Shown: positions 255 to 34,765 of the stretch, one piece after another
Layout: each line of letters opens with the position of its first letter
How positions within the stretch are numbered: the stretch's first letter is position 1
NCBI GenBank assembly: GCA_002256025.1
Contig: NKIB01000067.1
Span: forward strand, 1 to 35,527
Direction of reading: 5' to 3'
Length of the DNA stretch: 35,527 bases
From: Asterionella formosa
Taxonomy: Eukaryota
Program-made: the position numbers and the translations under genes
The notes under the pieces: model-generated
What the model saw: the letters and a program-made list of their open reading frames with translations, nothing else
Told to the model about the DNA's origin: nothing
Databases searched by the model: none

Positions 255-960
255 AAGCGCCACAGCAGCAACAAAGAACATCTACAAAATCAAGAACAAG
301 ACTGTTTTCACAACACACAAGCGTCCACAACAAACGATAACCAATATGCATGCAAGCACCATAGTGAGAATGGTACGGGCACCAGAGGATCTCACTGCCA
401 AGACGAACCAATACAAGAAGGCTAACCACATCTACAAATTCATAAAGGAATACATTGTTAGCATAATGCTACTCCTTTACATTGCATTTTAAATGGTGAT
501 TAGATTTGATTGATTTTCGACAAGAAATAGTACAGCTTTACTAGCAAATATCACACAGCTACCGCCTCCTGTCATCCGATAATACATGAAAAATACGCAA
601 CGAAGCGAGTAAATTCTGGTTCCACTTTCTTACTGTCCCTTTTTTGTATAGACAAACTCATCTGTTTACTGTAACAGTCATTCAAAGTCTCCAATGAATC
701 CTAAAAGACAGGCCTGTTGCCTCTAAAGGTTGTTGTTATTAGATCCGTAATGGACTTAACAGTTACCGCAATGGTCGTTTGGGGGTCACTAGCTTTGTCG
801 TGTTACTGATTTTTAGGGGTCAAATCAATGTTGACTGATGATTACTACCGGTATGCTGCAGTCTTAAAAATGACTAATATACCGGTAGGCTTTTATTGAC
901 AGGCTTCGTCAAAACTGTTAAAACTCGTGGAAATTAGCAAAACAAGTTTTATCTTTAATA
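255..960 (+). repeat. Dispersed non-coding repeat, copy 1 (left arm of a diverged inverted-repeat pair)
   Basis: Aligns by eye to the reverse complement of ~5127-5800. Shared blocks include catctacaaaatcaagaacaagactgttttcaca, tttgattgattttcgac, atacatgaaaaatacg, tttttgtatagacaaactca, agacaggcctgttgcct, gtcactagctttgt and aggcttttattgaca. Confidence 0.85.
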
Positions 961-1506
961 TAGATAGGTATATTGCCTAGATAATACCCTCTGTGCAACT
1001 ATCATACCCACCGGAATACCGTTATGTATTCCAAAGTATTTTACTCGACGACATTTCTTGTCCATCAGGAGTGTAAGAGAAATACGTAAAACTGCTGTAC
1101 TACCGGTACACTTCAACATTGATCCGTGTTGTCTGAAGATGAGACGTGGCGACAATTGTTTGAGAACATCTTCTCATGCATTGATGATTTAATCAAGTCG
1201 TGCGGCAGATAAGCAAAGAACTTCCAAAAATGTAATTCAATACTTTCTGAGAGCCCCATTGTATTCGTCAAACCTGCATCAGTTTGTGTTCTGCATTGAT
1301 CTATCATTCCCTATCATAGAACTGCACTTCAAGGCCGCCAGTATAATTGGATAGTACATTGGCTGCATGGTATCTTGGCAAAACAATAGCTACAGCTATT
1401 AAGCCATACTTAAGCAGCCCAGTAAACTTGACTAAAATTCTGTATCGCACGATCTCGTTTGAACAAACAGCTCAACCAAACGAGATAATCACCTTTCAAT
1501 ATCATC

Positions 1507-2244
1507 ATGTCCGATACACTTTTTGTTACGCCGACCTCTGGTTGCCGTGATCCGAATACTTATGAATGGTCATTAATACGGATTCCAATACTGTTGAATA
1601 TTTCGGCTCTCATTTCCCTTTCATTTTGGTGGATGTCTCTTAAGCGTATCAATCTTTTCCGACAACTTCGACAAGTTGGAAAACGCGTTGGTGGTGTTGT
1701 CCGATCATCAAGGGCCGATGGGCAAAATTCATTCACTCTAACTGTTAGATTCCCTGCCTATGTTCAAATGCCCGGAGAACAGAATTTCAGTACTGAGTCT
1801 ACAGAGGATTTCAATGGACAAGAAGCACCCAGAAGGATCCATGGTTGGGCAACCAAAGAGTATAACGTGTCGTCTAACGAGTATATGACTGCTGTTCGAG
1901 TTCATGCAATTGAAATGGTATTTGATCCAAGCGCTGGTGCACCCAAAGGTCTAGCGGCCCCTGCTTATTTGCTGAATAGGTCTGCATCGTTAGGAATCGT
2001 TTGTTCCACCATCTGGTTACTTACTCCAACGGTTTTGCTTTTATTGTTCGGGGTCAATTACCTTCCACAGTGTGCACTATTCCATACAGGACCCTGCATT
2101 CCTTATTGGTTGGTGGGGTATTCTGTACCGGTTCTCATCATGGTTTTATGTCGTCGTATTTGTAAAGGAAAATGTACTTATAGTGATCTGGAATTTGAAA
2201 TGGAGACACTGAATGACGATGCCATCCCCGTGGAGGCTGTATAA
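1507..2244 (+). CDS. Hypothetical 3-TM membrane protein, family copy A (DUF3592-like layout)
   Basis: Intronless 245-aa ATG ORF. N-terminal TM (IPILLNISALISLSFWW), a beta-rich soluble part, then two C-terminal TMs joined by LPQCALFHTGPCIPYW. Clear paralogs at 10105 and 15874. Confidence 0.8.
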   Translation: MSDTLFVTPTSGCRDPNTYEWSLIRIPILLNISALISLSFWWMSLKRINLFRQLRQVGKRVGGVVRSSRADGQNSFTLTVRFPAYVQMPGEQNFSTESTEDFNGQEAPRRIHGWATKEYNVSSNEYMTAVRVHAIEMVFDPSAGAPKGLAAPAYLLNRSASLGIVCSTIWLLTPTVLLLLFGVNYLPQCALFHTGPCIPYWLVGYSVPVLIMVLCRRICKGKCTYSDLEFEMETLNDDAIPVEAV

Positions 2245-3273
2245 TCTTGAGTTGTATTCCTAGTAGTATAAAGTGGCAATCATGAGATACATATTCCATA
2301 ATACTAGGAGTAAACATAAATACATTGCTCATCTTTCTATAACCTCTTTCTGTCGACCTCATGCCCAAGAAGCTTTCATGGCCTGCTGTCATGGAAAGGA
2401 GTGATGTAGCTAACGACACGTACGGCTTTGGATCTCATATCTGTCGTTCTTACCATATATTCTTGTCGAGTCTTGTCAGTTTTAGAGAAGTGGAAAATGC
2501 AAAAAATTGCAGCACTGAAACTGCTGTCGTGACCTGTTTTGCGATTCTGAATGACACGTAAAAAATAAATAATTAAAATTTAATGTATACTTTTACATCC
2601 AACAAAGACTAAAGAAAATACCAAAGAACATATAATTTATTTGACGTGTTTGAAAGACTATGGACAAAATTGCATTCTCCTTCCTCCACATCCATCACTT
2701 CTGTATCATTTGTTAACTGTTTGTTGCTTCTTCAAATGGCACATATGATTTGCTGAACTCTCAATCCTTCTTGTTACTAAAGTTACAAATCGAAGCTCCC
2801 TCAAATGAGTGGACTGATGCCGATTATCTTGATTTTGAAAAGGCGTTCGGACTTGTTCTTTCTGTAAATACATCAGCTTGTTAATTTTCAGAAAATTCTT
2901 TAAATATTACATTTGAGTTGCAGCACTTTCAATCATTGTGCATCCTTGTCACTTCTGATGATTCCAAGAATAGTCAGGAGTCGAAACTTCGTCAAAACAT
3001 CAGACTGATCATGGCGTCCATCTGATTTTTGAAACAGCACCCGGCAACTTTGTATCTCGATCTGGTGCTGTGAATACAGCCTAAGTATATTCAAAAAATA
3101 AACTGGCAGCAGCTCAGACCTTTTTCACATGCTGTTGCTTTTGGTTTTCCAACACTCATACCTGCAACACCTTCTATAGCAGCTTCTGTATTAGCCGCCA
3201 ACCTCATCAAGTTTCACCTCTCCCCCTGCTCAATTTACAAAAATCAGCCTCATCTGCTCAACTTGGTTATTGT

Positions 3274-3560
3274 TTGTCACTTTCACTATCACTGTCAATG
3301 TCAATGTCACTATCACTATCACTATCACTATCTCAATCACAATCACAATCTCTATCACTATCACAATCACTATCTCTATCACTATCACAATTACAATCAC
3401 AATCACCATCAGAATCAGAATCACAATCACAATCTCAATCTCAATCACAATCTCAATCAGAATCAGAATCAGAATCTCAATCAGAATCTCAATCATTGTC
3501 ATTGCCATTCTTTCCACTGTCACTGCCACTGCCATTGCCACTACCACTGCCAGTAGTAGT
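3274..3560. repeat. Degenerate hexamer tandem repeat (TCACTA/TCAATC/TCAGAA/CCACTG variants)
   Basis: About 290 bp of 6-nt periodicity. It gives dipeptide-repeat ORFs in four frames (HY, IT, SL/SQ, IV). Confidence 0.9.
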
Positions 3561-4317
3561 GACCTTCTATGGCACTTGAAACAAATTTGATGTATTCAAG
3601 TACTCACTTTGGTGTGTTGAGAATCCACTACAAATTGCCTGTATAGTGGTAGTAGGCTTATTTACGCCTGTTCGATATACTGGTAGTCTATGACCATTAC
3701 CTGGTTCATGCATGGCTGAATGATGGCGGATTAATTTTAGTGTACGCTACCATTGTGTATATTCCTACAATTATTATATGCACGCAGTAATGGTTTGATA
3801 TGATTAAAGCAAAAGTTAGACATGGGTAGATTTTTCGAATCAATCCAATCTAAATACTCTTGTAACATGGTCCTTGAACATCATGTAGTTTCAATTCAAT
3901 CATGCTGTTACAGTATAGTATGTATAGCCGGCTGCTAGAAGCAGTGTACTGGTACCGGGCTTCACCATCAAAAAGGAGGAAAACACTGAACATATTTTGA
4001 CTATGCGACTATATAAAAAAGAGGATAGTATGTTTTATAGCCCATTCGTAATCTCCTATTTTTAGGCAAGTCTTTCATTGTGTTACCTCCTGCAAACAAG
4101 ACCTGTACTTTCCTAGTTTTGTTAGCGTAGGTAATCTTCAACCACGCACCTTTCACAAAAGTTGATCATCATAGCCACAGCGTTAGGGGAAACTCCGACC
4201 GCCTATAAAGGCGGCACAAGCTGCTTGTAGGGGGCAACCCACTATTTCTTGCACACCACCAGGCAAGACCGTGCAGGTCGGTAAGGATTGTGGGAGTCGA
4301 ACCCAACGATGGCTTTT

Positions 4318-4395
4318 AAAAAAAATGCAGGAATCGAACCTCACAACCTCAGATCAAAGGCAACGTACCAAGCAAACCACTGAGCCATTCCCTTC
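4318..4395 (-). ncRNA. tRNA-like RNA polymerase III unit (tRNA-derived SINE head or pseudo-tRNA)
   Basis: The minus strand reads A-box TGGCTCAGTGG (4387-4377), B-box GGTTCGATTCC (4340-4330), then a T8 tract (4325-4318). A second B-box, GGTTCGACTCC, lies at 4303-4293. The acceptor and anticodon stems do not fold canonically. Confidence 0.55.
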
Positions 4396-4453
4396 TTGTG
4401 TCACTTTATTAAAATATAGCTACAATGCAATAAACATTTAATGGATCTGACGA

Positions 4454-4490
4454 TAAGGGTTAGGAATTAGGATTGGAGTTAGGGTTAGGG
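4454..4490 (+). repeat. Short degenerate telomere-like (TTAGGG) tract
   Basis: taagggttaggaattaggattggagttagggttaggg: about six degenerate hexamers, two of them perfect TTAGGG. Confidence 0.6.
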
Positions 4491-5126
4491 GGACGAAATA
4501 CCCCTACCTGGTATCATTTTCTTATAGATATATATTATATTCGTGAGTACATTTACCGGTACTTGACTATTGCCGGTATTTGCTCGAGGACCGATGGGTA
4601 CAAGTAAAAAACTGCTGTGACCCACTGAACAGGAGAACACTGAACAGGAAAAAAACACGACGGTTTGACCCCAACAAATGCCGATATGTCAAGATGTAAT
4701 TTTATAGCGATTTGTTTGTCCTAAAATATTGGTTGAAAAGTGCAATCGACGAAAATATTGCCAGAACACGGATAACCCCATGTTTTGAGAATCCATTGTT
4801 ATAATCGCACTCGATTTATTTGGTATATTAGTCATGTCGTATCCCTTTCTCTGTCAATCATTTTTGCCTAAGTATGTTGAGCATTCGTAAATGGTATACA
4901 GTTCACATTAGCATATGTGCATATATGTATACCGGTTCAGTGTTACAGTCGTGGATATTGACATCATCAATATGCAGGTAAATGCTTGGCCATTCCGGTA
5001 TTTTTGTGAGTTGATTATATTACCGGGTATTTGGGCATACAGCCAGAACTCACTGTAAAGAGTCTTGCTTCCTTAAACGCATGGAACAATGCCCATAGTC
5101 AAACTTTTACAGTTTTCCGGGTTCAT

Positions 5127-5955
5127 TATTAAAGAAAAAAATTTGTTTTGCTACTTTCCCCGAGTTTTTTCTTGATGAGGCGGCTTGTCAATAAAAGCCT
5201 ATTGTAATTTTAAGACTAGTTCATGGTAATGCATCATCTGTAACAATTGATTTGATACCCCGAAAAATCAATTAACACAACAAAGCTAGTGACTTTCAAA
5301 CGACCATGGCGGTAACTTTTAAAAGCACTACGGATCTAAAAACAACCATTAAAGGCAACAGGCCTGTCTATTTGGATTAATTGGAGACTATGTACGACTG
5401 TTACAGTAAATGTTTGAGTTTGTCTATACAAAAATAGGGACAGTATAGTGGAACTAGAATTTACTACTAGCATCGTCACGTATTTTTCATGTATCATGCT
5501 GGTGTCACAGTATGTCATACATATTCGCTTGTAAAGCTGTATTATTTCTAGTCGAAAATCAATCAAACAATCAAATCGTCATTGAAGCTACAATGTAAAT
5601 GAGTAGTATTATGCTAAAAATGTATTTCTTAATGAAATCTTTATGTGACTATCATTATGATGATGCCTTGTGTTATTGGTTCTTGGCAGTGCAATCTTCC
5701 GGTGCCATTGTGCTTGTTGGTTGTGGGCAGTTACGTGTTCTTGTGAAAACAGTCTTGTTCTTGATTTCGTAGATGTCATTGCTGTTGCGGCGCTCATAAT
5801 GCCTTGAGTTGAATTTTGGCAGTTAGATCTTCTGCTATCATTTTCACTTTGTTGCTTGCGTGCTTGTGTGCTTGTTGCTTGTTGTTGTGGGCGCTTGTTG
5901 TCAGTTGTGTGTGCTGAAAACAGTACTCTTGTTCTTGATTTTGTAGATGTCGTCA
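5127..5955 (-). repeat. Dispersed non-coding repeat, copy 2 (inverted relative to 255-960), with an internal ~175-bp duplication
   Basis: Reverse complement of 255-960. The tcttgttcttgatt(t/c)gtagatgtc block occurs twice (~5753-5777 and ~5927-5951). Confidence 0.85.
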
Positions 5956-6544
5956 CATTTCAGTCTTAAGCTTGCGATATATTTATTAGCTTAAATCAAA
6001 AATGTGGCCAAGATTGTCTGACAAACAAATGAAAGAAATCGTTTTCGATTGCCCCTCATTTCCTTTCTCTTGATTGCAGCCATAAAACGAAATTAATTTA
6101 GCTGTAAACAATGCGAAGAATTTATAATTCTTTTTACCACCAAAATTAATTGCCCTTTTAGTCGCATCTAATTTGAGGCACAACATCATGTTGCATACCT
6201 ATATATGAGCGCTTGTTTTGTGAATACACTCCACTGTCACGACCATCTTTTTGGAGTCGTGGATAAAAATTTCAAGGCAATTCGGAGACAATTTAACTTA
6301 AATTAAATGTTTTCTAAGCTAAGTAAATCACCGCCCTGACCCCTGGTATAGGGGTGGTTCCAATACGCCTACGGTACGTACACTGGTAGTACTAGTATGA
6401 ATACTAATACCAATGGTAGCGTAAGGCATTACCAGGAGTACCTAGTGCACACTGATTGCTCTGTTCACCACAGTTTCCTATCCACTGCTGTTTCACCAGA
6501 TTTTTATATGACAAAAAATCTTACTATGAAAAAGTATTTTTACC

Positions 6545-9878: not shown

Positions 9879-10104
9879 CGCACCGTAGTCAAACCTGCAT
9901 CAGTTTGTGTTATGCTTTGATACTTCGTCCCCTATCGTATGACTACGGTATGCATAGGAGAGTAAGCAGTATTGGAGAGTACATTGCATGGTAGGAGTAC
10001 CAGGCACAATCTTGGCACAGCAATCTTTATTGATCTCCTGCATCGCAAGATCTCGTGAGGACGAACAGTTCAACCAAACAAGATTGTCATCTTTCGGAAT
10101 CATC

Positions 10105-10857
10105 ATGTCCGATAAAACGAATACGGGCCTTGATTATTGTGATTGGAATGAATATGAATGGTCTTATATATGGATTCCAATATTTTTAAATATTCTGGCT
10201 CTCATTTTCCTTTCATATTGGTGGAAGTCTCTTAAGCGTATCAATGGTTTCCGACAGCTTCGACAAGTTGGAATATGTGTTCGAGGTTTTGTTAGATCAT
10301 CAAGGGTCGTCGAAACTCAACATGATGGACAAATTCAGTATTCATACTATCTGACTGTGATATTCCCGGTCTATTTTCAAATGCCTGGAGATCAGAATTT
10401 CAGTTCTGAGTCCACAGAGGGTGTCAATAGCCACGAAGTCCCCAGACGTATCCATGGTTTGGCAACCAAAGAGTATCGCGTGTCATCGAATGTGTATTCG
10501 ATCGCTCTCCGAGTGCATGAAATTGAAATGGTTTTCGATCCAAGTGCACCCGAAGGTCTGGCGGCCCCTGCCTATTTGCTGAATACGCCTGCATTGTTAG
10601 GTGTCTTTTGTTCCGCCATCTGGTTGCTTACTCCAACGGTTTTCTTTTCATTGTTCGGGGTCAAGTGTCTTCCACAGTGTGCACCGCTCCATACAGGACC
10701 CTGTGCTGTATTTTGGTTGGCGGGATATTTTGGACCGATTCTCATCATGATTTTATGTCATGGTATTTGTAAAAGAATACCGGTATGTACTTCTAGTGAT
10801 CTGGAATTTGAAATGGAGACACTGAATGAAGATGCAATCCCCGTGGAGGCTATATAA
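10105..10857 (+). CDS. Hypothetical 3-TM membrane protein, family copy B
   Basis: Close paralog of 1507-2244. Start placed at ATG 10105 (catcATGtccgat, same context as copy A). Homology extends upstream (~9886 vs ~1266) and downstream (to ~11070 vs ~2470), so this is a segmental duplication. Confidence 0.8.
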   Translation: MSDKTNTGLDYCDWNEYEWSYIWIPIFLNILALIFLSYWWKSLKRINGFRQLRQVGICVRGFVRSSRVVETQHDGQIQYSYYLTVIFPVYFQMPGDQNFSSESTEGVNSHEVPRRIHGLATKEYRVSSNVYSIALRVHEIEMVFDPSAPEGLAAPAYLLNTPALLGVFCSAIWLLTPTVFFSLFGVKCLPQCAPLHTGPCAVFWLAGYFGPILIMILCHGICKRIPVCTSSDLEFEMETLNEDAIPVEAI

Positions 10858-11105
10858 TCTTGAGTTATATTCCTAGTATAAACTGGCTGTCACGAGGTAT
10901 ATATTACATAATACTTGGAGTGCACGTAAATTCATGGGTCATGTTATCTACAACCTCGTTCTGCCTACCTCTTGTTCATGATGCTATCATGGTCTTCCAT
11001 GGGAGAGAGCAATGTAAACACATTGGCTTTTGATCTCAAATGGCCATCATTCTTAACTTATTCTCCATCGTCTTTTAGGATGCCCATGTACAAAGGTGGT
11101 TAAGC

Positions 11106-13564: not shown

Positions 13565-14013
13565 ATATTGGTTGGTGGGATATTTTGGACCGATTCTCAT
13601 CATTGTTTTATCTTGTGGTATTTGTTGTTAAACAGAGGATGGAAGTCACATGGAATTCGAAATGGAGACACTGAATGATGATGCCATCCCCATGGAGACT
13701 GTATCCGATTCTCCCGATCCTGCTCATCATGGTTTTATGACGTGGTTGTATTTATTGTGAAACAGAGGGTAGTCTTCCGGATTCGAATGGAGACACTGAG
13801 TTGTATTTCTAGTATGAACTGGCAGTCATGAGACATGGTAGATTGCATAATGCAAGGAGTGCACGTTATTCATGACCACATGAACATGTGGGTAATGTGC
13901 CCTCTGATGGGAAGTAGCAATCTAGCTGATTACATATTGGATTTTGCCCTCACATAGCTATCATTCTCTATATATTCTCGTCGTCATTTAGGATGCCGAT
14001 GTACAAAGTTGGT
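13565..14013 (+). pseudogene. 5'-truncated, decayed copy of the 3-TM family (last TM, tail and 3' flank), with the tail partly duplicated
   Basis: Translates YWLVGYFGPILIIVLSCGICC*TEDGSHMEFEMETLNDDAIPMETV. A second ctcatcatggtttta...ttcgaatggagacactga follows. The 3' flank matches 10860-11100 (gagttgtatt..ctagtat..aactggc, tttaggatgcc.atgtacaaag.tggt). Confidence 0.8.
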
Positions 14014-16599: not shown

Positions 16600-16790
16600 A
16601 TACTACCGGTACCGGTAGATAGGAGTGCATAGACTACTACCGGTACTACCTGGTACCTGGTACCTGGTACCAGGGACCTGGTACAAGGTACCAGGGACCA
16701 GGGTACCTAAAACAATGTACGGTAATAATGAACCAAGGTACTTGTACATGATTTTCATATGGTGTACGGTACCGGGGTACCAGTACTCCC
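16600..16790. repeat. Cluster of stacked TACCGGTA / TACCWGGTA palindromes
   Basis: tactaccggtaccggta...taccggtactacctggtacctggtacctggtaccagggacctggtacaaggtaccagggaccagggtacc. Confidence 0.85.
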
Positions 16791-19375: not shown

Positions 19376-19378
<3 letters not shown>

Positions 19379-19685: not shown

Positions 19686-20769
19686 CTTTCTCCAATCAAA
19701 GTAAGGTTGTCACACACACACACGCACATACACACACTCTCTCTCTCACTGGCTTGCTTGCTTGAGGATCAATGCAATCCGCAAATAGGTCGACCAGAGA
19801 AGACTACCGGTAATAGATGGAGTTGTGTTGATGTCAGTGTACGAACGTTTGTTCTTGTCAAAATATTTTCGAGTATTTTCTTACTTTCTATTCGTTACCG
19901 GAACATGAACTAGACTACCGGTACCGGTACCAATCGGAGTACAGGTACCGCTATCTGCCTATTACAGCTATACTGGAGTATTGTTTGTTCTATCCCCTGC
20001 GCCTTTCAAAAAAAGAATCCTAATAATTATTCCTACATAAACATACCATCCAACAAAGGATTCTGTTCTGTCCAACCTCCTCATTGACTCCAGGTATGGT
20101 ACATACGTACATACAAATATCATGACAATCCAACCAGGTACCGGTACACATACTGGCATATAGACTACGGTAGACAACCTTGTTGTACAGCAGAAGTACA
20201 TAGTATTTATTAGTAGATGCACCGTCCTGCCTTTACATTACTGGTATGGTTGTTATGATGATCGTCACATCACCACATCGACGTCGCTCACCAACATCCA
20301 GACGACATGAGTACACGTACGTTCTGGTCAATGTATGTAGACAACCGGTACGCGCACGTTTCGGTAAAAATGAAATTTAGTTAGGAGGTTTTCCTGGTAG
20401 GAAGAACCGTCTTCTGCAGCAACTCAGCGGAATATTGTATTATTTTAGCTAAAAGTCACGAGAATTGTGGACTCGATTGTAACCCAGCAAATCGAATCGT
20501 GCATTGCCACGACCACAATCAGCTACCGGTACCATACTACCTGGTACTCTAGGAATTCAAAAGAATCATATGTGTATCTCCAAAAATAGTCCAGACATGA
20601 TCCCTTGAGCCTATTTGTAACGGTACCAGGTACCAGGTTCCAGAGGTACCATGGGATTTATTTCAAACTGCAACATAATATCGCTAACGGTATATACTCA
20701 AACGACGATGACAAAACCACCCCATAGTCTACATTCTTTGAGAATAAAACAAACTACACTGTCAGAAAC

Positions 20770-23003
20770 ATGAAAGTCCAGTCCTTCATTTGCCTTTCGA
20801 GCATTTTTCTCTGGCAGGAGGCCTCTGCTTTTTACTTTTCAGGAGGGGAGCCTCAACAATCCTTTGCCAGCGGCGATGTGTAAGTCCCTTCTTGTTGTAC
20901 GTAGAAAATCCAGTACTGGTCCTACGCGAAATCGTTGTTGAATCGTGCCTAGAGCACCAGCCATCAAGAAGCAGAATTGTCAATACAAGGCCATGACAAT
21001 GACGATGATCTACTGTACCGGTACTCCCCTCACGCACCGCACTCCCTCCCTCATGAACTCACATCAGTGTCAAGCTCAAGGTGAACAAAATGACGTCGGC
21101 CAAGACGCTCATGTCTGTGGATTACTACCGGCTCCCCTTTTGTCAGCCGGAAGGAGGACCCGAAATGGACCATGAAAGTCTTGGTGAATATTTGGCAGTT
21201 GATCGTATTGAATCCTCCCCCTACCGTCTTCAAATGAAGAAAGAAATGTACTGTGAGCAGGTCTGTTTCACCAACCTTGGACGCGGAGAGCACCATGCAG
21301 TCAGACCCAATAAGGTCGTTCAGGCCATTCGGAAGAATTATCACAACAACTGGATCGTTGACAACCTTTCGTCAGTATTCAAGGTGGAAGACCCTGAGAC
21401 TATCAAAACCAGATACTGGGGAGGATTTCCAGTGGGATACGTTGATGAGAACGACCAGAAGGCATACATCAATAACCACGTTAACATTGAAATCATGTAC
21501 CATCCGGTGGAAACGGAAGTGGACGAATTCCGTGTAGTTAGATTTACAGTGGAGCCTTTTTCCATACAGCACTCCTTTGAGCCATTGCAAGACAACGACG
21601 ATGATACCAACGACGATGATACCAACGAGGAAGGAAAGGGGACAAAGGTAGCGAAATTCATCAAACCCATTATGTCATGTGCTGCAGGCAATCAGAACTT
21701 ACACACCAATTACTATATGGTCGAAGCGGCAGGACCTCAATTGGCATCAGGAAAGGTGCTATTCACGTACGATGTCATTTGGAAGGAAAACAAGGAATTG
21801 AAATGGACCAACCGATGGGACATTTACTTGAGTATGGACAATGCCATCCCTGCCAAGGTGCACTGGTTGTCCATTGCCAACTCATTGGTCATTGTCGGTG
21901 TCTTATCGGCCATGATTGCGGCGATTCTGGTACGCAACCTACGATGCAACTCTTCCAAATACAGTCGTTTGGGGACTGATGTAGAAAACGCGGAAGACTT
22001 GAAAGAATTTGGATGGAAATCGGTTCATGCCGATGTATTCCGTCCTCCTTCCTTTTCTCCACTCTTGTTGTCCTGTGCCTGCGGAACAGGAGCTCAAATT
22101 CTGGCCATGAGCTTTCTTACAATAATCTTTTCGATCATGGGATTCTTGTCACCATCCAATCGTGGAGCACTTCTCATGGCAGTGTTGCTTCTATATGTCA
22201 CCATGGGAGGGATTGCTGGATACGTTGCTGCTCGCCTCTACAAGACATTCAATGGCAAGTCCTGGCAACAAGCCACTGCATTGACAGCATTTGGATTTCC
22301 CGGAATTTGCTTTCTTTTCTTTGTTTTACTTGATCATTTGGCTGTGACACTAGGATCAAGAGATGCTGCCCCTTTCGAAGCCATGGTCACGCTCTTGGTC
22401 CTATGGTTTGGAATCTCTACTCCACTTGTCTTTTTCGGAGCCTCCATCGGATACAAGCAGGATGCCATTGAGTTTCCAGTCAATACTTCATCTATTCCTC
22501 GTCAGATTCCTGACCAGCCTTGGTTTTTGAGAATTCCCTTTCCTCTTGTCATTGGGGGGATGTTGCCCTTTGCAGCATGCTATTTTGAGGTGTTCTTTAT
22601 TTTGGCATCCGTATGGGAGGGCCAGTACTATCATGTCTTTGGATTTTTGCTTCTGGTATTTTTCATTCTCTTGCTGACAAGTGCTGAAATCACTATTTTG
22701 ATCTGTTACTGGCAGTTGTGTCAAGAGAATTATCATTGGTGGTGGAGATCCTTTTGCACAGCAGGAAGTATTGCATTGTATATTTTTTTTTATTCCTTCA
22801 TGTTTTTCAGAGAACAACTTGAGACCAATGAATTTGCCACATATATGTTGTTCTTTGGATACATGGGATTGGTGTCCTTGGGACTTTTCATGATGATGGG
22901 CTTTGTTGGTGTGGCCAGTTTGTTGTGGTTTAATAAAACCATTTTTCGCTCCATGAAGATTATCAAGAATGAAGAATACAATATTCTTCAAGAGGAGGCT
23001 TGA
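20770..23003 (+). CDS. TM9SF: Transmembrane 9 superfamily protein (nonaspanin/EMP70), 2 exons
   Basis: Exon 1 20770-20879 encodes signal peptide MKVQSFICLSSIFLWQEASAFY. The intron is 20880-21067 (gtaagt...ctcacatcag). Exon 2 has YYRLPFC, WIVDNL, VHWLSIANS, GWKSVHADVFRPP, RQIP and ENYHWWWRSF, plus nine C-terminal hydrophobic segments. Confidence 0.95.
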
Positions 23004-24371
23004 ACAAGAGATATTACCACAACTGATTTAATAGTCTATTCACTGTATTGTACTTTGGTTATTTTTTCATGTATGTTCCTCTTGCTATTTAAGCTAATCT
23101 AGCTTCTTCTTTAGAAACTAAAATGCTTTGTGATTTTCACAATATGGGAAACGACTAGTCTAACACTGTTCTGTTAAATTTGGGATATTCCCATTCCATC
23201 ACTGGTGTCTCCACCAATTTCCTCCTTTAATATACTGTGGACTTGGCAAAATAAATGCCGAGGCGAGCTTGCATTTTGTGGTACATTTTTAAAAAGTAAT
23301 TTTCAGTATAGTGGCAATCACAGATAACTAGTTTTTCGATGGCTCACATGCATTCTTAGTGCAATTGAGCCAAGGGGAAATTGTGGAGCAAGTCAAAATG
23401 GCACTGGAGAAAATTTAAGAATCAATGCAACTGTTTTCCTCCAGAGGGAGTATACCTATGTTAGTATAACGTTAAATTTTCTGTAGTCTGACTGTAATGC
23501 TTACTCTTTCTAAGCAAGCTTGCTCGTCAGCACCAGTGTAGTATTAAACCTTCTGTTCCAATCCCACCTTTTTGTGAGCTTCTTCAATCTAACTTGTAAT
23601 TGTTTATACAAACAATTATTATGGCTCTCTTTCCAAATTTGTGCATAGATAGATATTTATTGTTGAGTTTGCAAACATTCAACTCTCAGCCAAGAACTGA
23701 CAAGCAACTCAACTCAACATCACTTAGTAGTAGCTAGCTAGTAGTACAACAGTTGTGAATATTCTTCCATCAATGTTATCTGCATTGCATATATAGACCT
23801 TTTCTTCAGTGAAATATTGATAACTATGGTACTAAGAACATTATACATTCAAATATTAATCTTGGTTTGCTGATATAGGAGTTCTTTTGGCAATCCATGC
23901 TGTTCGAATTTGCACATTATTTCAATAGCTACTACTGGATTTGTTTGTCTGGCTTACTCAAGATTGATTAGTTCGACTGAACTAATATGCCTGGAACGAT
24001 ATTAAAAATCTTGACACTATATACCGGTATATGATGTGGCGAATCAATACTACGAGATACCGGTAACCGATGGAACAGAATAACGGAATTTGTGATAGAC
24101 AATATCTTACTTTGTCGCTCAGGATGCATTACTACCAGTACATCATCACCAGGCTCGTTGTGACAAAATACAGATGTCACTCACAAACGAAGCAAACACG
24201 CTGCTGCACCAACCAACCGTACCCGTCCTTGTTCATTAGCTATCATCATCCTCAATCTACACAATAGCTATAGTGGTCGATGCCAACATCAATAATTAAA
24301 ACCGGTACTCTAGTTGATTGATTTATTTATTGATTGATTGAAGACAAAAATTGAATTTCCCGTCAATCAAA

Positions 24372-26204: not shown

Positions 26205-26645
26205 CAATAATCTGCAGTAACTCATGGTTACATCATTGCTTTAAAAGCCAAAAAAAAAAAGATTTGGATTGGTATATCCTACAAGGTGGCAATACCAAAT
26301 ACTACTGGTCATGTGATTCATCAATTCATTGGTATGACAAAACATTTATAGCAATACCGGTAGTAGCATCCATGAACATGCAACAAAAACTAGCTAATGG
26401 TAGTATGCAGTGGGTGATGGAATAGTAAGAACTTTGGGTCTGCCTTACATGTGGTACAAAATCATTCATATACTTGGTGCTTCCTATATAGAAAAAGTTA
26501 ATTCAGGCAGATAACTACCGGTACTATACCGCAACTCCATGGTCCTTGTGCATCTGTTTTGCCTGTGTGTACAATAAGCCCACAAACTATACTAGCAAGC
26601 TAGATAGCTAGCTAGCTACCAGTATTAGTAGTAGTAGTGTCAAAT

Positions 26646-27401: not shown

Positions 27402-27563
27402 GGTCGTGGTATCCAAAATGAAATTGACGAAGCGAAAAGCAAGCCAACGTATGACGGAGTTATTGAACCAAAAAGATCGCGGTCTGGCCTGCTTGCCTTA
27501 TGATGGAGCCTTGCTTGCTGGCTGTCGCGAAGGAAAATGCACCTGAATCCTTCTGATGATTGT

Positions 27564-27633
27564 TGACGTCATTATTTCGTAATGGCAAGTGACGTTGCTG
27601 TGGTGGATTCCGAATTCCCTCTGTGCTGACTCA
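27564..27633. promoter_or_regulatory. Cluster of bZIP-type sites upstream of Lhcr
   Basis: TGACGTCA (27564-27571), TGACGT (27590-27595) and TGACTCA (27627-27633), about 165-230 bp upstream of the ATG. Confidence 0.45.
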
Positions 27634-28396
27634 CAAACATATCTAACGTACAGCACGACATCATGTATGTGCGTGCATGCATACCGGTAGTTAGTACATA
27701 TGTATCAGGCATCAGGCAGACAAATCAACAAGCGACGAGGAAGGATGATCATGTGGTCGTACATTTCGTCGTTGTCCCATGTACGCAGCGACCAGGTACT
27801 GCTAGACCACATATTTGCACATGATTCTACCGTCTTAAATATTTAACTAGTACATCTATCGTGCTTTTATTTGTTACTATTTAACCAGCAGTAGCGATTC
27901 GCGAATTGGTAAGAATTCAGGGATTCCCGGAAATGGAAAATTTCTAGGGAGCGAAACGACCATTACTTTATAAATATGCAATCTTTTAAATTGAAGAAAT
28001 TTTTAGATGGTACGAAGGGTCAGCTATCGATTCCGAACTTTAAATTCGCGTTTCGAAGGAAATGGAGGGCACACGATGTTTTGCCCCAAGAATGTGTTGA
28101 ACCGGTGAGGGCAACTCTACAGACGTTCTCTTATGATAGTAATTGAATCTTGCAACTTAGATTTACGTCGTCTCCCACTTGCTGGTATTCTTTCGATCTT
28201 GGAGGTGGAGGAGGATTATTGAATCATTGCTTCCAATTCTGTTTCATAAATGTATCAAGACTCTACCGTTTTAGTGTATTTATATATATGTGTATATATA
28301 ACCATGTTTTATGATTATGACGATTGTGCTACTGTTGTATTGTTCCTCTCCATCAGACTCTATGAAATCTTGGATCGTTCCTCCTTTAGACTGCTG

Positions 28397-29419
28397 CTAC
28401 CAGCTTTTCTTGTATGACAAGGAAACTTTATTTCTGGCCTCTTTATCATGTTTGTTTTGTAATGAATCATCACCATTGGATGGATCCGACAGACTTTGAC
28501 TCTTGGACTTGCTGTCGTTGCTGCTTCCAGTTTGACTACTAATGTTGGTACGACGGCGACGACTGACAGTAGTAGTACCAGTAGTCTTTGCATACTCTTG
28601 TTTTCGATCGTAATAGTCATTTAATAATCCACGAATAGTTTCCACTTGATCCCTCAAGGTAACATCATGTTTGATGTTTTTAGATGCATCTCTTTTTAAT
28701 TCTTGCAACATTTGTTGATATTCCAATTCATCTAAAGTGACATCATCTTCTTGTGATTTAATAGATCGTCGTTTCTGTATAGATGTGAAGACTGAATCAT
28801 ACAATTGTGCTGCTTTTTCTACTAGTCCTTCCTCTTCTTGTTGTTGTGTAGATGTTGTTGATCCCAATGCAATGGAAGAAAGAGATGATGATAATCGTTG
28901 TGAATGGCACCACGTCAAATAAGAATTATGTGTCATGGTGGATTGTCCAGTACTACTACATATTGCTGTCGATCTTCGTCTTATTGATTTTGTTTTTGGT
29001 TTGGCTTGTATTTGTTGTACTAGTTCAGAGGATGGTTCCAAACATTTTGCTTTTGCTGTAATTCCAGGTATAAAATCCAAAGTTTCACCACTACTGCCAA
29101 TACCATCATCATTATTACGACGTGGTAAAAATGTTGTTGTTGAGGACCCCCGTCGTATACTTGTTTTTGTAGTTCCAATATTTACACTTCTTGCAGCAAC
29201 AACAACACTCCCAGCACTACAATTTTCTCCGGTACTTTCTTCTGTTGTCCTTCTTGTGATGGTTGCCAACAATGTTTGTTGTGATGACTTTTTAAATTGT
29301 GGTGGTAAATCAGGTGCCAAAATACGTGTCAAGGCTTCATATGCAACTGTCGTGACACGACAGCTTGAACGACGACTGCTGCGACGTGAGGAGGATGGGT
29401 CCAAATCCATTCTTGTCAT
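28397..29419 (-). CDS. Hypothetical Ser/Thr/Arg-rich protein with a short helical/coiled-coil segment
   Basis: 340-aa ATG ORF with repeated RRSS/RRST motifs and a helical region (ELEYQQMLQELKRD...LRDQVETIRGLL). No family recognised. Confidence 0.65.
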   Translation of the reverse strand: MTRMDLDPSSSRRSSRRSSCRVTTVAYEALTRILAPDLPPQFKKSSQQTLLATITRRTTEESTGENCSAGSVVVAARSVNIGTTKTSIRRGSSTTTFLPRRNNDDGIGSSGETLDFIPGITAKAKCLEPSSELVQQIQAKPKTKSIRRRSTAICSSTGQSTMTHNSYLTWCHSQRLSSSLSSIALGSTTSTQQQEEEGLVEKAAQLYDSVFTSIQKRRSIKSQEDDVTLDELEYQQMLQELKRDASKNIKHDVTLRDQVETIRGLLNDYYDRKQEYAKTTGTTTVSRRRRTNISSQTGSSNDSKSKSQSLSDPSNGDDSLQNKHDKEARNKVSLSYKKSW

Positions 29420-31149
29420 TGAGTTACTACTACTTTTTAATTAAACTCCAAGTTGTTGTCAACGTTGTTGAAATGATATACTTCATGTAAATGACAAAGT
29501 ACAAGAATGGATGATGGATTTGGGAATATGTATACTAGTGTTGTGATGGCTTGCTAATAATGATGGGAGGAGGTTGTTTCTGGTTTGAGAAGTGGGACAC
29601 GAAGAATAATCTATTGTTGGGAGTCCAGTGATGTCCCCTAGAGTGTATACGGGAAAAATAGAGAAGCTCGAGATTACCGGTAAATTTAGACAGGATGGGA
29701 CAACATATTTTACCAAGTCCGGTACAAGGAAAAATCCCTACTACTTCTACTGTTTACAATACATGTCCTGTAAACAAGAGCGATGATCTCATCTGAGAAA
29801 AAAAGAGACATTGCCCGAAATTTTGGGACCATCAAATTTCTTTATGTCCAAAAACGAATGTTGAATGACGTATGAACAGTATGTAGGATACAAGTTGTAT
29901 AACATTTATGTACAATATGTCGTACTTCAATTTTGCAGCACGCTATGTATATATGTAGTATATCTACGGTTAACGTACAACAAAATGCCATTTCTATTTC
30001 AACATTCACATCGATAGATAGTAAAATAATTAATCCATGCGATCTGCATATACAGGGAGTGGTTTGGGTGTTGTACCAGACGACAACCCACCCTCAGGCA
30101 GGAATGATGGTGTGTGGTCCATTGGCGGAGGCTGCACTGATGATGAATGCAGTGTGGTTACCTGGTACCTGGTACCAGTACAGTACCTGGTACATACATA
30201 GATCTTCCTTTTGTTCGGTGTAGACTACCGGTATCGTTCATTTATTGAAAGTTACTGTTGTCGCAAATAACGTGTCCACCCACCACCATGATTGAACATG
30301 TACATTGCTTATATGTAAACTCCGAACCTGGTCCTGTAATCATGACATCCCCCCCCCCCCCCCGGAATAAAAAATTTGTGGTCGGTTCGAGCGATGGCAA
30401 AATGCGAATTGTCCGGATCTTGAAAGAACTGGGTGTTCCCAGGACCAAATGGTCCTTGTTCCTATTCCCTGTACAGTACCGAAGATCTTCAATTGTCACT
30501 ATATATGTACCGATATGTATCTACATTTATAAGTATGTGGAGGTACATCGGAATGACTACCGGGTACCGGGTACCAGGTACCAGCTACCTAATGCACCGG
30601 TAGTGGCCATCATTTCGAAAACAAGAAACATGAAACGATGCATTCGTGCTCGACATGGTATATAGCTATGGTGTCACTGGGTACTGGTACCAGGTATGCG
30701 AAATATAATTATATCCTGTACGTACTCTGCCACGAAAATGGTCTCAATGGTCTCATCAGTGCTCTCAACATGTCCTTTGGTTGTTGCTTCGAGGCAGAGA
30801 GCCATTTTGTATCAACTACTAGCTGGTACCAGTATCGGTATACTTGCTACCTGGTACTGGTACCGGTAGCATACCGGTAGACAACATAATGCACAAATTT
30901 CAAAGCCAAAATGGAGGATGCGATCGTATCACCACTGTGACGAATCCCTACATTTGTTCCATTGGTTGAGAGTCGTACAATGTCTATGTAGTTTATGCTA
31001 AACTATTTTACGATTTGACACTTTCTTCATAACAAATACTGTTAGTCTAACAAAAACCAGAACCCTTGTTGCTTTCTTGGAGGAGTAGAATAACTATACT
31101 GGCACAATATATATGTATGTAAATATATAGCGCAAAGGTACCAGAGCGG

Positions 31150-31770
31150 ATTTACGATTATAGAGACCCCTTGTCCTTTACCAACAATGCCCGAGCCTGA
31201 TCCAGTTTCTGTGCTGGCTCTTAGAGTGGTAGAATGCCTCATTATGCGTATGGATGCAGTACAACACTCTAATTTACACCTTGTTCTTTACTACTTACAA
31301 ATTCCCAAAGCTGATTTCTGGTTTGCTAGCTTGAGAGTGAAAGAATGCATATGTAGGCATACTGCACTGCCAACAATTCACGATTAGACACTATGTTTTT
31401 TCCAACAAGGAATATACCCGACACTATTGGCTGGAGCGAGAGTGACAGAATACCTTATCATGCAAATGTATGTAGTGCAAAACTTCACGATTTTACACCT
31501 TGTTGTTCGTTACTAGTTACGAATGCCCGACCATAATTTCTAGCTTGCTGCTAGCTTGAGAATAGCAGAATGCCTAAGTAGGCACAGTGCAATGGCACAA
31601 GACACAATTAGAAATCTTGATCTTTCCAATAACGAATACCAAACCTGGCTGTTGATACTTTGTTAGTTACAATTTGCAATGCTCGAACCTGATTTCTTGC
31701 ATGCTAGAGTACTTTATCATAGCTTGAGAATGGTAGATGCCTAAGTAGGGCGAAACGAAGTCACGATCAG
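31150..31770. repeat. Old diverged tandem array, period ~110 bp
   Basis: Variants of (g)ctagcttgaga.t...agaatgcct at ~31215, 31326, 31432, 31550 and 31720. tttacaccttgtt recurs at ~31273 and ~31492. Confidence 0.7.
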
Positions 31771-31825
31771 AAACCATGGCATATAAAATAATGAATGTAC
31801 CCAATTCAGTTAGTTTTCTTTAGCA

Positions 31826-32305
31826 TGCCCACCATTTCTGCAGTGCAAAACTGTTTCATGACCTTTTAGTTCATTTTTACAATAACGCCCACCATTTCTG
31901 CAGTGCAAAACTGTTTCATGACCTTTTAGTTCATTTTTACAATAAAGCCCACCATTTCTGCAGTGCAAAACTGTTTCATGACCTTTTAGTTCATTATTAC
32001 AATAAAGCCCACCATTTCTGCAGTGCAAAACTGTTTCATAACCATTTTGTTCATTATTACAATAATGACAACCATTTCTGCAGTGCAAAACTGTTTCATG
32101 ACCTTTTAGTTCATTATTACAATAGCGCCCACCATTTCTGCAGTGCAAAACTGTTTCATGACCTTTTAGTTCATTATTACAATAATGCCAACCATTTCTG
32201 CAGTGCAAAACTGTTTCATAACCTTTTTGTTCATTATTACAATAATGCCCACCATTTCTGCAGTGCGAAACTGTTTCATAACCTTTTTGTTCATTATTAC
32301 AATAA
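31826..32305. repeat. Young 60-bp tandem array, 8 copies
   Basis: Unit accatttctgcagtgcaaaactgtttcatgaccttttagttcattattacaataatgccc, with few substitutions and no indels. Confidence 0.98.
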
Positions 32306-33209
32306 ATAGGATAGACCGAGAAAGAAAGTATCTGATACAAGTACTAATATAAGTATAATGTATTTATACAGAAGCGTTCCACCGGCAGGAAGGAAGTACA
32401 TTAACATGATTATTAAGAGAATGGGTTAACTAGCTATTTACCAGTAGCTGGTACTAAAACGAGACTATGATGTACCTTTTATTAGCTCCTTGTTGTAGAA
32501 ATAGCTATTACAAGAATAACTACTGCTACTAAAATACTATAGCTGACGAGAGATTATGGGCGGGTACTGTCTTTGTTTCCCAAGTTGATTCTGAGACTCT
32601 ATATAGTACTAGAGGCTGGTAGCTCCACCACCAGCCATGCAACAACATGAATTCATATGAATGAATACGAAGTGAAAATTTGTTGGCTGCAGTACATTTT
32701 CACTATTACAGATTACTACTCACTCTACCAGTATCCGGCAAATAGTGGTAGTTTCTTATGTTCAAGCAAGGTCTGAGGTCGTCAATCCTTAGCAGCTAGC
32801 TGGTATTTGTTTCCTCTCTTCCACCAGTTATTTATCCAGCAATCATTAACATAACACCACCAAAATAACAATAAGAAGTGACGGCAAGAAGCCATCACAG
32901 ATGGCACCAATACAATATATGTTCGCCATTCATCAGCACCCAAAATGTATGTGTGATAGCTTGCTAGTAGTGAATTGCAGCAGTCAATCAGGCAGCCAGG
33001 CATGCAGTAGTAGTGCATAGTATCCAGTCGCAATATCTAGCTATACTTAGCAGACTATATACTGGTAGCCAGATAATATCCTAATTAGTTCCAATTTGTG
33101 AATGTCATGCCTTTTGTTCTAGCATGCAGTTGAAGAATGGCCGTGAGTATAAATGACAGGAACTACCACGCCCTCCTAAGGACTAGAAATAACTCACTCA
33201 CAAACTTGT

Positions 33210-34250
33210 CTACTTGTATTCCTTTTGAATGACTTGAGCTCCAATCAAACCTGCTTGTTCAATGGTTTGTGAGAAATCTGTCAATGTTCTTGGAGGAAAT
33301 CCAGTCACCAAAGTAAATGGTCCAGTCGAAGCCGTTGTTGTGGATTCGTCATTCAACAAATGTGTCACAATCAAATCCCAAATAGTACATGTAATTGGAA
33401 CAGTAATAATCTTTCTTCCTTGTGATGGATGCATTAGTCGAATGGCAATCGTAGTTGTGGTAGCACTTGTTGTGGCTGTTGGTGGTGGTGCAAAAGTCGT
33501 AGAAAATGTTGTTGGATCAATGACACCAGATGCTGTCGCACTACCAGTAGCAGGTGTTGTTGTTGTTGTTCCCAACGCCGTTCCTACTCCATGAAAAGTG
33601 CGAAATTCTTCCACATAATCTTTTTCTCGATGATCCAATAATCCGACAATCACATCGTCTTCTTGATGATTACTATTTGTATTAGACAAAAATTCTCTTG
33701 GTGTTTTTCCTTGTGCCAAGGCTCGTAAAAATTCTGAATTTGCATCATCATCTAATCGACGAAATGGTCCATCATCCACAATAAATCCATTTCGATACAT
33801 GGTTATGACACGACGTTGTTGGTTTTGTTCGTTGTTGTCATTATTACTCTTGGTAGCTCGACCAAACACAGCATCACGATCGTTTGGTTGCACCGCCAAT
33901 CCACTTTGTGAGTGTGTGTGTGTGTGTTGCGTGACGGTAAAAAATCAAAAAGTAGTTAGTGGTAAGTCAGTGTTATGGTTGGTTAGTTCCAAGTCATGGT
34001 TGGTTCGAAAAGGGTAGTTTCTCAAGTCCCATTACCGTCCACTAGTAGTAGGATATAATAATAGTAGCAGCAGTAGTAGTAGACGCTATGTACTCAAAGT
34101 TGCTTCAAACTGAAAAAATGACAATTCCACGTACCTTCCACCACCTCGTGCATCTATTCCACCGACATAACGATTGTTAGTTCCGTCGTCGTCGTCGTCA
34201 TCAGAAGAGTCTTGTTCTTTCTTTGTGTACAGGCCATGAATGTTACTCAT
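33210..34250 (-). CDS. SEP-UBX domain p97/Cdc48 adaptor (p47/p37/Shp1 family, no N-terminal UBA), 2 exons
   Basis: Exon 1 34250-34135 (MSNIHGL...YVGGIDARGGG), intron 34134-33904 (gtacgt...ctcacaaag), exon 2 33903-33210 restoring SGLAV. SEP domain ITMYRNGFIVDDGPFR, SHP box FHGVGTALG, UBX GFPPRTL...TIEQAGL. Confidence 0.93.
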
Positions 34251-34444
34251 CCTTCCTTTGATATATATATATGTTGATTTGTAATGGAGGAGATGGAACA
34301 GGAATCGATTTTTGTTGTGAATCCTTGTGTCATGCAAACGATAGAGATGATGAAGGCTACAGCGGCTGTTCGTGACATCATTTTACTCAGTACTACGAAC
34401 GTACCCGAAAATAAATCAACTCTCAGCGCAACCTTTTATGGCCA

Positions 34445-34765
34445 TACATATAGTCGTAGCTGTGTACTGCACTGGTAGTTAACTACCGGTAGCCCCTTCG
34501 ACAAAGCTCGCGATGTACATATACCGGTACTTGAGTACAGGGTAGACTGGGTACCAGATACCAGTACATATAGTCGTAGCTTTGTTGTGCACCGGCACCC
34601 TTCGACAAAAAAGCTATGTTGCGATGTACCGGTACTCGTTTAGACTGGGTACCAGGGTACCAGGTACCTGGCACATAAAGTCGTCGCTATGTAGTGCAGT
34701 GGTAGTTAACTAGCACCTTCGACAAAGCTCAGTATATATACTGCCTTGTATAGACTGGGTAATAC
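34445..34765. repeat. Three diverged tandem copies of a ~115-bp unit
   Basis: acata.agtcgt.gct...tgca....ccttcgacaaa...agactgggta starting at ~34446, ~34566 and ~34673. Confidence 0.85.

Follow-up and report, generated by a model that had tools for sequence, protein, structure and literature searches.

Introduction

The plant Stowaway elements end in CTCCCTCC, the highly iterated palindrome HIP1 of cyanobacteria (GCGATCGC) occupies genic and intergenic positions alike and is not known to arise by insertions or deletions (indels), and the mobile GC clusters of yeast mitochondria are hairpin-folding, organellar sequences of 30-50 bases. The TA-bounded internal eliminated sequences or "TA-indels" of Paramecium are thought to be derived from Tc1/mariner elements, and their excision is programmed, somatic and precise, with a single TA left behind. 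Tc1, Tc3, mariner and IS630 cut with a stagger of 2 bases, and Sleeping Beauty leaves the canonical footprint TA-C(A/T)G-TA as well as the non-canonical forms TACGTA, TACATA, TACTA and TATA, more than half of its footprints being of partial or non-canonical kinds, as stated in a preprint (bioRxiv 10.1101/659086). For the plant Stowaway MITEs (transposable elements of the miniature inverted-repeat type) and their mariner-like Osmar partners, it is described that excision leaves the target duplication together with short end pieces (PMC4561436). Here, we describe the palindrome TACCGGTA and its variants with a central base, TACCNGGTA, in a 35,527-nucleotide stretch of DNA from the diatom Asterionella formosa (assembly GCA_002256025.1, contig NKIB01000067.1), which is called the window in the following. 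The pattern is real, strong and lineage-wide: TA-duplicating insertion, in one case derived, a narrow range of inserts, clustering, avoidance of coding sequence, a distinct decay spectrum and occurrence in other diatoms are observed directly. With somewhat more belief than doubt, we read the sites as insertion and excision scars of a TA-duplicating cut-and-paste transposon with the ends 5'-CC...GG-3'; the transposon and its ends are what we infer from these scars, and the candidate type would be Tc1/mariner/IS630 or another superfamily with a 2-base target duplication.

Among the described systems, the sites appear to work most like a Tc1/mariner footprint, in which a duplicated TA brackets a few bases derived from the element ends, a palindromic insert may have an ambiguous base at its centre and the event is an indel at TA. 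However, the insert is CCGG or CCNGG here and CWG in Sleeping Beauty, partial forms are not enriched here, and Tc1/mariner footprints are rare experimental events, whereas the sites of the window are a bulk feature, with about one per 410 non-coding bases, and stand in arrays. The putative element would be known here from its scars alone, with a spectrum that differs from that of the best-studied case. Stowaway and Osmar elements share the small target duplication and the short element-end pieces left on excision; whole Stowaway MITE copies are seen in the genome, whereas only scars are seen here. HIP1 is comparable in that a single palindromic octamer is in excess by one to two orders of magnitude. 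Nevertheless, 25 of the 26 TACCGGTA sites lie outside long open reading frames (ORFs) and the sites arise as TA-duplicating indels, whereas HIP1 also occurs within genes, so that the analogy to HIP1 drawn in an earlier reading of the letters without database searches (the sequence-only reading) fits poorly. In Paramecium, TA-bounded segments are likewise cut out and TA junctions left, yet the diatom sites are germline scars of 4-5 extra bases in organisms without nuclear dualism. The yeast mitochondrial GC clusters are also short GC-rich palindromes inserted into AT-rich spacer with a short duplicated target, but the inserts here have 4-5 bases and are nuclear.

In general, surveys of diatom repeats find that long terminal repeat (LTR) retrotransposons and unclassified repeats dominate. 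A study of three freshwater diatom species likewise reports mostly LTR retrotransposons and unclassified repeats (PMC12044402), and a paper on diatom repeats (bioRxiv 10.1101/2025.10.24.684338) makes no mention of mariner, MITE, footprint, DNA transposon or "palindrom". In the literature outside subscription journals and supplements, we found no description of TA-CCGG-TA scars or of a genome-wide accumulation of footprints in diatoms.

Abundance and specificity of the TA-bounded palindromes

The window contains exactly 26 copies of TACCGGTA, compared with 0.27 expected as the mean of 100 dinucleotide shuffles, none of which gave more than 2. The sequence-only reading had counted about 26 by eye, at the same places, against fewer than one expected, and both its count and the enrichment over a background that it had foreseen are borne out for the window. 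The same is true for the CCWGG form, which it had described as abundant and almost entirely non-coding: TACCWGGTA occurs 13 times (0.14 expected), and none of the 16 TACCNGGTA lies in a long ORF. On the plus strand, the central base of TA-CCNGG-TA is T in nine, A in four and G in three cases. TA stands on both sides of 26 of the 69 CCGG in the window, the next commonest pair of flanks occurring three times, and on both sides of 13 of the 54 CCWGG; CCSGG is bounded in this way three times. When the 16 palindromic tetramers between two TA are compared, CCGG is found 26 times and each of the other 15 at most six times, and TACCGGTA is the commonest palindromic 8-mer of the window (runner-up 7). 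The inserts thus form a narrow family, CC(N0-1)GG. Beyond the TA the sequence differs at every site, and therefore the motif is not part of a longer repeat.

The sites, arrays and empty counterparts are the following, with the strand given where a feature has one:

846..887: two TACCGGTA (846 and 880), carried by the left arm of an inverted duplication, while no TACCGGTA stands in its right arm
5191..5204, minus strand: empty counterpart of site 880, aaTAggctttt, in the right arm
1101..1108: single TACCGGTA
4505..4561: TACCTGGTA (4505) and TACCGGTA (4554)
10778..10785, plus strand: TACCGGTA in the ORF of paralog B (9988-10857), 6-base, in frame and derived, turning one residue into Ile-Pro-Val
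2167..2174, plus strand: empty counterpart in paralog A (ggaa/aatg)
13629..13636, plus strand: empty counterpart in copy C, with the spacing of paralog A but a diverged local sequence
16604..16707: mixed array, TA-CCGG-TA-CCGG-TA, then TA-C-TA-CCGG-TA-C-TA-(CCTGG-TA)x3, then decayed CCAGGG/CCTGG units, 0.75 kb upstream of the adenylosuccinate synthetase gene
19805..19812: single TACCGGTA
19916..19929: tandem TA-CCGG-TA-CCGG-TA
20139..20146: single TACCGGTA
20524..20546: TACCGGTA and TACCTGGTA with 6 bases between them
20614..20652: decaying CCAGG-TA array upstream of the EMP70 gene, common to contig L001 of a relative, with 2 substitutions within
21016..21023: TACCGGTA within intron 1 of the EMP70 gene, kept in contigs L001 and L013 of relatives
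24022..24065: two TACCGGTA (24022 and 24058) upstream of the amino-acid transporter gene
26355..26523: two TACCGGTA (26355 and 26516) in the interval where two genes converge; runs X6 and X7 show no 6-base indel
27682..27689: TACCGGTA upstream of the light-harvesting protein gene
29675..29682: single TACCGGTA
30159..30233: array TA-CCTGG-TA-CCTGG-TA-CCAG-TA ... TA-CCTGG-TA and TACCGGTA at 30226
30558..30590: array TA-CCGGG-TA-CCGGG-TA-CCAGG-TA-CCAGC-TA-CC
30682..30696: TA-CTGG-TA-CCAGG-TA
30827..30879: cluster TA-CCAG-TA ... TA-CCTGG-TA-CTGG-TA-CCGG-TA-gca-TA-CCGG-TA; run X2 shows no indel
34484..34491: TACCGGTA in tandem repeat unit t1; unit t3 and matching contigs of runs X2, X6 and X7 lack the 6 bases
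34705..34712: empty counterpart in unit t3 (gttaacTAgcacc)
34522..34529: TACCGGTA in unit t1, with its equivalent in unit t2 at 34627; unit t3 reads atataCTGCC opposite this site, a possible empty site in an ambiguous alignment
34627..34670: TACCGGTA (34627), then array TA-CCAGGG-TA-CCAGG-TA-CCTGG

Filled and empty sites

Duplicated sequences within the window carry filled and empty versions of the same site. In the tandem repeat, unit t1 reads gttaacTA-CCGGTA-gcccc (34478-34491) and unit t3 gttaacTA-gcacc (34705-34712), which is the clean difference of six bases (CCGG+TA) that the sequence-only reading had reported. Its second pair, site 880 against the inverted copy, also shows presence and absence, with aaTA-TA-CCGGTA-ggctttt in the left arm (876-887) and aaTA-ggctttt on the minus strand (5204-5191); the difference, however, amounts to eight bases, CCGGTA plus an extra TA, and not to six. 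A third pair, in coding sequence, had been proposed between paralogs B and A, and indeed paralog B has six additional in-frame bases (TACCGG/CCGGTA) at 10778, in comparison with copy C as well as with paralog A, the alignment being otherwise colinear. No clean indel was found for site 846 and its counterpart near 5225 in the right arm, a pair that had already been called less clean.

At the protein level, paralog B reads CKR-IPV-CTSS at the position of 10778; the corresponding sequence is CKR-E-CTSS in P0122, an ortholog of B with 87% identity, and CKG-K-CTYS in both paralog A and P0124, the ortholog of A. Since both extra residues are absent from paralog A, P0124 and P0122, the six bases at 10778 were gained in frame, as a derived state, by the window's lineage. 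This is the only case that can be polarised, and for this one site it answers the question of insertion versus an ancestral motif, which had been left to an outgroup comparison, in favour of insertion. Opposite 34484 and 10778, the empty sites contain no CC or GG that could have served as a seed.

The place at 34484 is also one of the 12 indel rows listed, out of 57, that came from contigs placed on the window. Contigs that leave out the six bases make up a depth of 572.9 of 630.7 in run X2, 121.1 of 121.1 in X6, 81.1 of 87.6 in X7 and 0 of 147,426 in X1; because the place belongs to a high-copy tandem repeat, the X2, X6 and X7 contigs may stand for other copies.

Clustering, mixed arrays and avoidance of coding sequence

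For the analysis of clustering, the intact sites and TACYRGTA were taken together as 60 family sites. Gaps of at most 40 bases between neighbours occur 22 times among them, whereas 2000 trials with sites put at random on non-coding TA gave 6.0 on average and never more than 14. The sites are distributed unevenly, with 2 at 5-15 kb and 51 beyond 16 kb, and their density of one family site in about 410 bases refers to non-coding DNA. Intact sites occupy about 2% of the non-coding TA (42 vs. 1910), and TA-C-TA is mildly raised beside the sites (5 of 52 flanks, 1.6 expected).

Arrays could in principle point to a micro- or minisatellite, in which CCGGTA and CCTGGTA are 6- and 7-base units, or pieces of a dispersed repeat, that spread by slippage, conversion and repeat fragments. 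Perfect tandem runs do exist, namely (CCTGGTA)x3 at 16647 and (CCGGTA)x2 at 16604 and 19916, arrays occur at very many loci, and they adjoin the high-copy tandem repeat at 34446-34790. On the other hand, most TACCGGTA are solitary in unique flanks and comprise only about 1.3 units, which is beyond what slippage could make from a TA, and the empty sites offer no seed from which a unit could have grown. Furthermore, the arrays combine unlike units, such as CCGGG, CCGGG, CCAGG and CCAGC at 30558 or three CCTGG followed by CCAGGG at 16647, and therefore pure slippage of one unit is not sufficient. We regard a satellite origin as very improbable.

Only one of the 26 TACCGGTA and none of the 16 TACCNGGTA are located in long ORFs, compared with 426 of the 2336 TA (18%). 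The sole long-ORF site among the 42 intact ones, at 10778, is of the frame-preserving 6-base form.

Decay of the sites and an estimate of their rate

Among the 12 single-base neighbour classes of TACCGGTA, the class that arises by CpG transition, TACYRGTA (TACTGGTA/TACCAGTA), is represented by 18 copies, compared with 2.4 expected, and each of the other 11 classes by 0 to 5 (0.4 to 1.9 expected). In the non-coding DNA of the window, the ratio of observed to expected CpG is 0.63 and that of TG/CA about 1.3, and the coding DNA is likewise depleted of CpG with an excess of TG/CA. This composition suggests CpG methylation or another CpG-specific mutation bias in the diatom, and therefore the central CpG of the sites is taken to be the position that decays fastest, as expected if it is methylated.

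A rough calculation, which assumes equilibrium, can be based on these counts. The 15.6 decayed sites in excess, set against 26 intact ones, would correspond to a CpG-transition rate of about 2.4 times the mean per-base rate, and intact sites would be lost at about 11 times the mean per-base rate. With 42 intact sites on about 1900 non-coding TA, the formation rate per TA would be about 0.24 of the per-base substitution rate, so that sites would accumulate neutrally at roughly a quarter of that rate. The other neighbour classes show about half of the excess predicted at equilibrium, which would fit a site population that is still growing, the numbers being small. If the sites are scars of a transposon, the proportion of intact to CpG-decayed ones would provide a built-in clock for its activity.

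The rate of change also bears on the possibility that the sites are selected cis-elements, with TACCGGTA and TACCWGGTA bound by a dimeric protein near promoters, the arrays being homotypic clusters grown by slippage and the indels incidental. It is true that the sites are palindromic, non-coding and clustered, that the clusters at 16604-16707, 20524-20650 and 24022-24065 lie just upstream of genes, and that the intron site 21016 is kept in three lineages. However, the array common to the window and contig L001 (20614..20652) has 2 substitutions in 23 bases, no fewer than its surroundings, which are 7.5% different, and the intron around 21016 is as conserved throughout as the site itself; each of these two comparisons concerns a single locus. 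The mutational halo of the sites is close to the neutral expectation, and some sites are placed in an intron or where genes converge with their 3' ends (26355, 26516). Finally, new sites are CCGG+TA insertions with a duplicated TA, one of them coding, which selection for binding sites does not predict. A role as selected binding sites is therefore in our opinion quite unlikely.

Occurrence in other sequencing runs and in other diatoms

Sites of the family are present in contigs of four public runs (X1, X2, X6 and X7) from four different studies. Long contigs of X6 and X7 cover the sites 26355, 26516 and 26617 without a 6- or 7-base gap, and those of X2 cover ten family sites between 30444 and 31856, again with no gap; the sites are thus mostly not young. 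In X2 and X6, the stretches at about 24.5-26.4 kb and 28.4-29.7 kb have no contig cover and carry no information. At the arrays 16647-16678, 30180 and 34668, each of the four runs has dozens of contigs whose flanks are unrelated (loose-end agreement about 0.4), and the depth of the respective bins is raised ten- to hundred-fold. Therefore, very many loci must carry such arrays, at which contigs tend to stop.

A metagenome scan with EMP70 yielded 14 loci on short contigs, none of which belongs to the population of the window. Two of these, L001 and L013, hold genomic DNA of relatives, in which 89% and 92% of the amino acids of EMP70, respectively, are identical, and L001 differs from the window in 42 of 558 aligned bases (7.5%). 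The TACCGGTA at 21016 is common to the window, L001 and L013, and L013 has three TACCGGTA and four TACCWGGTA in 1.1 kb of upstream DNA. L010, which comes from a diatom with an EMP70 of only 62% identity, carries TACCGGTACCGGTA, L007 has one TACCWGGTA, and nine of the 14 loci contain neither TACCGGTA nor TACCWGGTA. Among viral contigs, 120 loci matched TACCGGTACCGGTA, those inspected being Gly-Thr coding repeats of phages and of a giant-virus bin, and the two matches of TACCTGGTACCTGGTACC are phage coding sequence; both sets were set aside as irrelevant.

These occurrences are also decisive for the suspicion of an assembly, adaptor or linker artefact, which the sequence-only reading had named as a way in which the motif could prove spurious. 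The window is a draft sequence with three N gaps, and the word contains the AgeI site that is common in cloning primers. Yet the sites are found in the contigs of four runs from four studies and in separately assembled metagenome contigs, including one orthologous site, so that an artefact is refuted for practical purposes.

A second TA-bounded word is TAGCTA, which is about threefold over-represented in non-coding DNA (18 vs. 5-6 expected, e.g., at 23733-23742), is missing from long ORFs and occurs three times as TAGCTAGCTA. Upstream of EMP70, the window and L001 read TA-(T/C)... GC-TA-aCGG-TA at the place where L013 reads TA-CCGG-TA. TA-GC-TA may thus be a second kind of TA-bounded micro-insertion.

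A candidate TA-targeting transposon

A transposon that targets TA fits the derived, TA-duplicating insertion, the narrow CC(N0-1)GG family, the mixed arrays, the avoidance of coding sequence and the neutral decay. Such an element would integrate at TA and duplicate it, and on excision each flank would retain the duplicated TA together with the outermost two bases of the element. Direct joining of these ends would give TA-CC-GG-TA, and an extra, or an unrepaired or mismatched, central base would give TA-CC-N-GG-TA. Each scar would supply two new TA, and repeated hits, aided by slippage, would build mixed tandem arrays. Selection would purge frame-breaking scars from genes, where the 6-base form could persist in frame, and elsewhere the scars would decay neutrally, fastest at the central CpG, to TACTGGTA and TACCAGTA.

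Several results weigh against this reading. Within the 35.5-kb window, a search for TA-flanked inverted-repeat elements with CC ends, which the sequence-only reading had suggested, gave nothing but the arrays themselves and the large inverted duplication (283-5945), and the 360 occurrences of TACC, when extended, share no common sequence past the short motif. No transposase domain was found by Pfam in 61 ORFs of the window (10 + 51; of the 86 frames of at least 75 residues listed, 25 short ones were left out). Partial scars are not enriched in non-coding DNA, where TACCTA occurs 11 times (11-17 expected), TACCATA five times (5-8), TACGTA seven times (4-6) and TACCATGGTA not at all, and the partial and one-sided footprint spectrum of the Sleeping Beauty type is not seen at the sites. 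Moreover, the 5-base CCWGG insert is not a simple pairing product of a 2- or 3-base stagger, and we found no precedent for the density of the sites in non-coding DNA. There are only three filled and empty pairs in the window, one alone with an outgroup, and most sites under long contigs of other populations are fixed and so give no sign of current activity. The footprint explanation offered by the sequence-only reading has therefore gained from the derived TA-duplicating insertion, the narrow inserts and the arrays, and has lost by the lack of an element or transposase in the window and of enriched partial scars. For these latter reasons, and since the 5-base insert does not follow simply from such a stagger, we consider the transposon only somewhat probable.

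In view of the unseen element and the lack of enrichment of partial scars, a dedicated insertion process is kept as an alternative. In this case, the micro-insertion would be precise and defined by an enzyme, with cohesive CCGG/CCNGG ends beside the duplicated TA and plain ligation instead of error-prone repair. These ends would be made by a nuclease or a mobile element, much as CCGG-family restriction enzymes cut before the first C, and the process might be self-propagating, in keeping with the HIP1 comparison of the sequence-only reading. One restriction-enzyme fold reads CCGG, CCWGG and CCSGG words by flipping out the central base. The very narrow insert family, the occurrence of all three of these words between two TA, the lack of enriched scars of imprecise repair and the absence of a conventional element from the window are in line with such an agent. 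Duplication of TA, however, is a hallmark of ordinary transposase integration, the sites decay as neutral DNA and keep out of genes, unlike HIP1, and we neither saw in the window nor know of a candidate enzyme or element for CCGG/CCNGG micro-insertion. It is unlikely, in our view, that precise cutting and ligation convert TA to TA-CC(N)GG-TA and have done so in more than one diatom lineage, each TA being hit at about a quarter of the per-base substitution rate. If it were so, this would be a new kind of sequence-specific mutator, which makes CpG-bearing palindromes and promoter-proximal arrays genome-wide.

Other origins were considered and rejected. Hairpin (P-nucleotide) palindromes of hAT or V(D)J excision would be expected at any flank and with even lengths only, whereas CCGG alone is enriched among the palindromic tetramers and the odd-length CCWGG occurs. 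Telomere-like repeats are ruled out, as the units are palindromic and without strand bias. piggyBac, whose target is TTAA and whose excision is seamless, was rejected for these properties. The segment of 382-415 bases between the arrays at 30159 and 30558 was tried as a MITE: the X1 and X2 joins across it have sides of 21 bases only, which is typical of repeats, and its depth is not that of a high-copy family. Neither did folding and an inverted-repeat search give MITE-like ends for the tandem units at 34430-34800.

If the sites are scars of a transposon, to return to the favoured reading, they would be the record of very large past cut-and-paste transposition in diatoms and of a major, so far undescribed source of mutation there. 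With about 2% of the non-coding TA carrying an intact scar, the process would be a leading source of small insertions. It gives rise to restriction-type palindromes and new CpG sites, starts tandem arrays of 6- and 7-base units near promoters and, as in paralog B, is able to add two residues to a protein; in addition, the look-alike arrays, thousands in number, break short-read assemblies. Should there be no matching element, the sites would point to a novel sequence-specific insertion mechanism.

Gene content and further features of the window

According to Pfam, the long ORFs of the window encode an EMP70 endomembrane protein, an amino-acid transporter, an adenylosuccinate synthetase, a chlorophyll-binding light-harvesting protein and a SEP/UBX protein. 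Among named relatives of the adenylosuccinate synthetase, the best are from diatoms (Epithemia 81%, Amphora 79%, Seminavis 74% and Nitzschia 74%). Near-identical DNA is carried by freshwater and lake metagenome runs from many studies, in three of which long contigs match the window with about 0.5-1% of the letters different. Based on these relatives and runs, the window is nuclear DNA of a freshwater diatom. Scans of the window for transfer RNAs and with Rfam gave no matches.

The EMP70 gene (20770-23003) has a first intron of 188 bases at 20880-21067 (GT...AG), which was defined by comparing the spliced metatranscriptome contigs L002 and L005 with the genomic contigs L001 and L013. Therefore, a bacterial-style ORF call at 21081 misses exon 1. 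The light-harvesting protein gave no match in the genome contig collection.

Paralogs A (1507-2244) and B (9988-10857) and copy C (13565-13727), which is partial and adjoins an N gap, belong to a small family of proteins of about 245-289 residues without a Pfam match. The family is lineage-restricted, with only five relatives among 5.8 billion proteins, and keeps the C-terminal motif DLEFEMETLN(D/E)DAIPVEA. Paralog A and a tandem repeat of 12/18-base units are flanked by the arms of the inverted duplication (283-820 and 5259-5945), which have about 550-650 bases and are 81-91% alike. Coding-like tandem repeats are located at 3247-3516 (12/18-base units) and at 31705-32364, where a 60-base unit is repeated eight times within the minus-strand ORF 31810-32340.

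At 34446-34790, three tandem units of about 110-120 bases are bounded by motif arrays, and a further stretch extends from 34790 to the window end at 35527. Their summed contig depth is hundreds to 1000 times that of single-copy DNA in X1 and 20-50 times in X2, X6 and X7, so that the stretches at 34446-35527 are a high-copy repeat. No ORF, inverted ends or database match was found for it, and a 24-base piece of it had no match in the genome contig collection or among viral contigs. A run of about 16 C (cccccccccccccccc) lies between two motif arrays at 30346-30361. Finally, tens of X1 contigs represent a family that includes a 37-base piece at 23954-23990 with an 8-base-pair stem and a 4-base loop (attagttc gact gaactaat); on both sides of the piece, these contigs diverge from the window (loose-end agreement 0.82-0.95).

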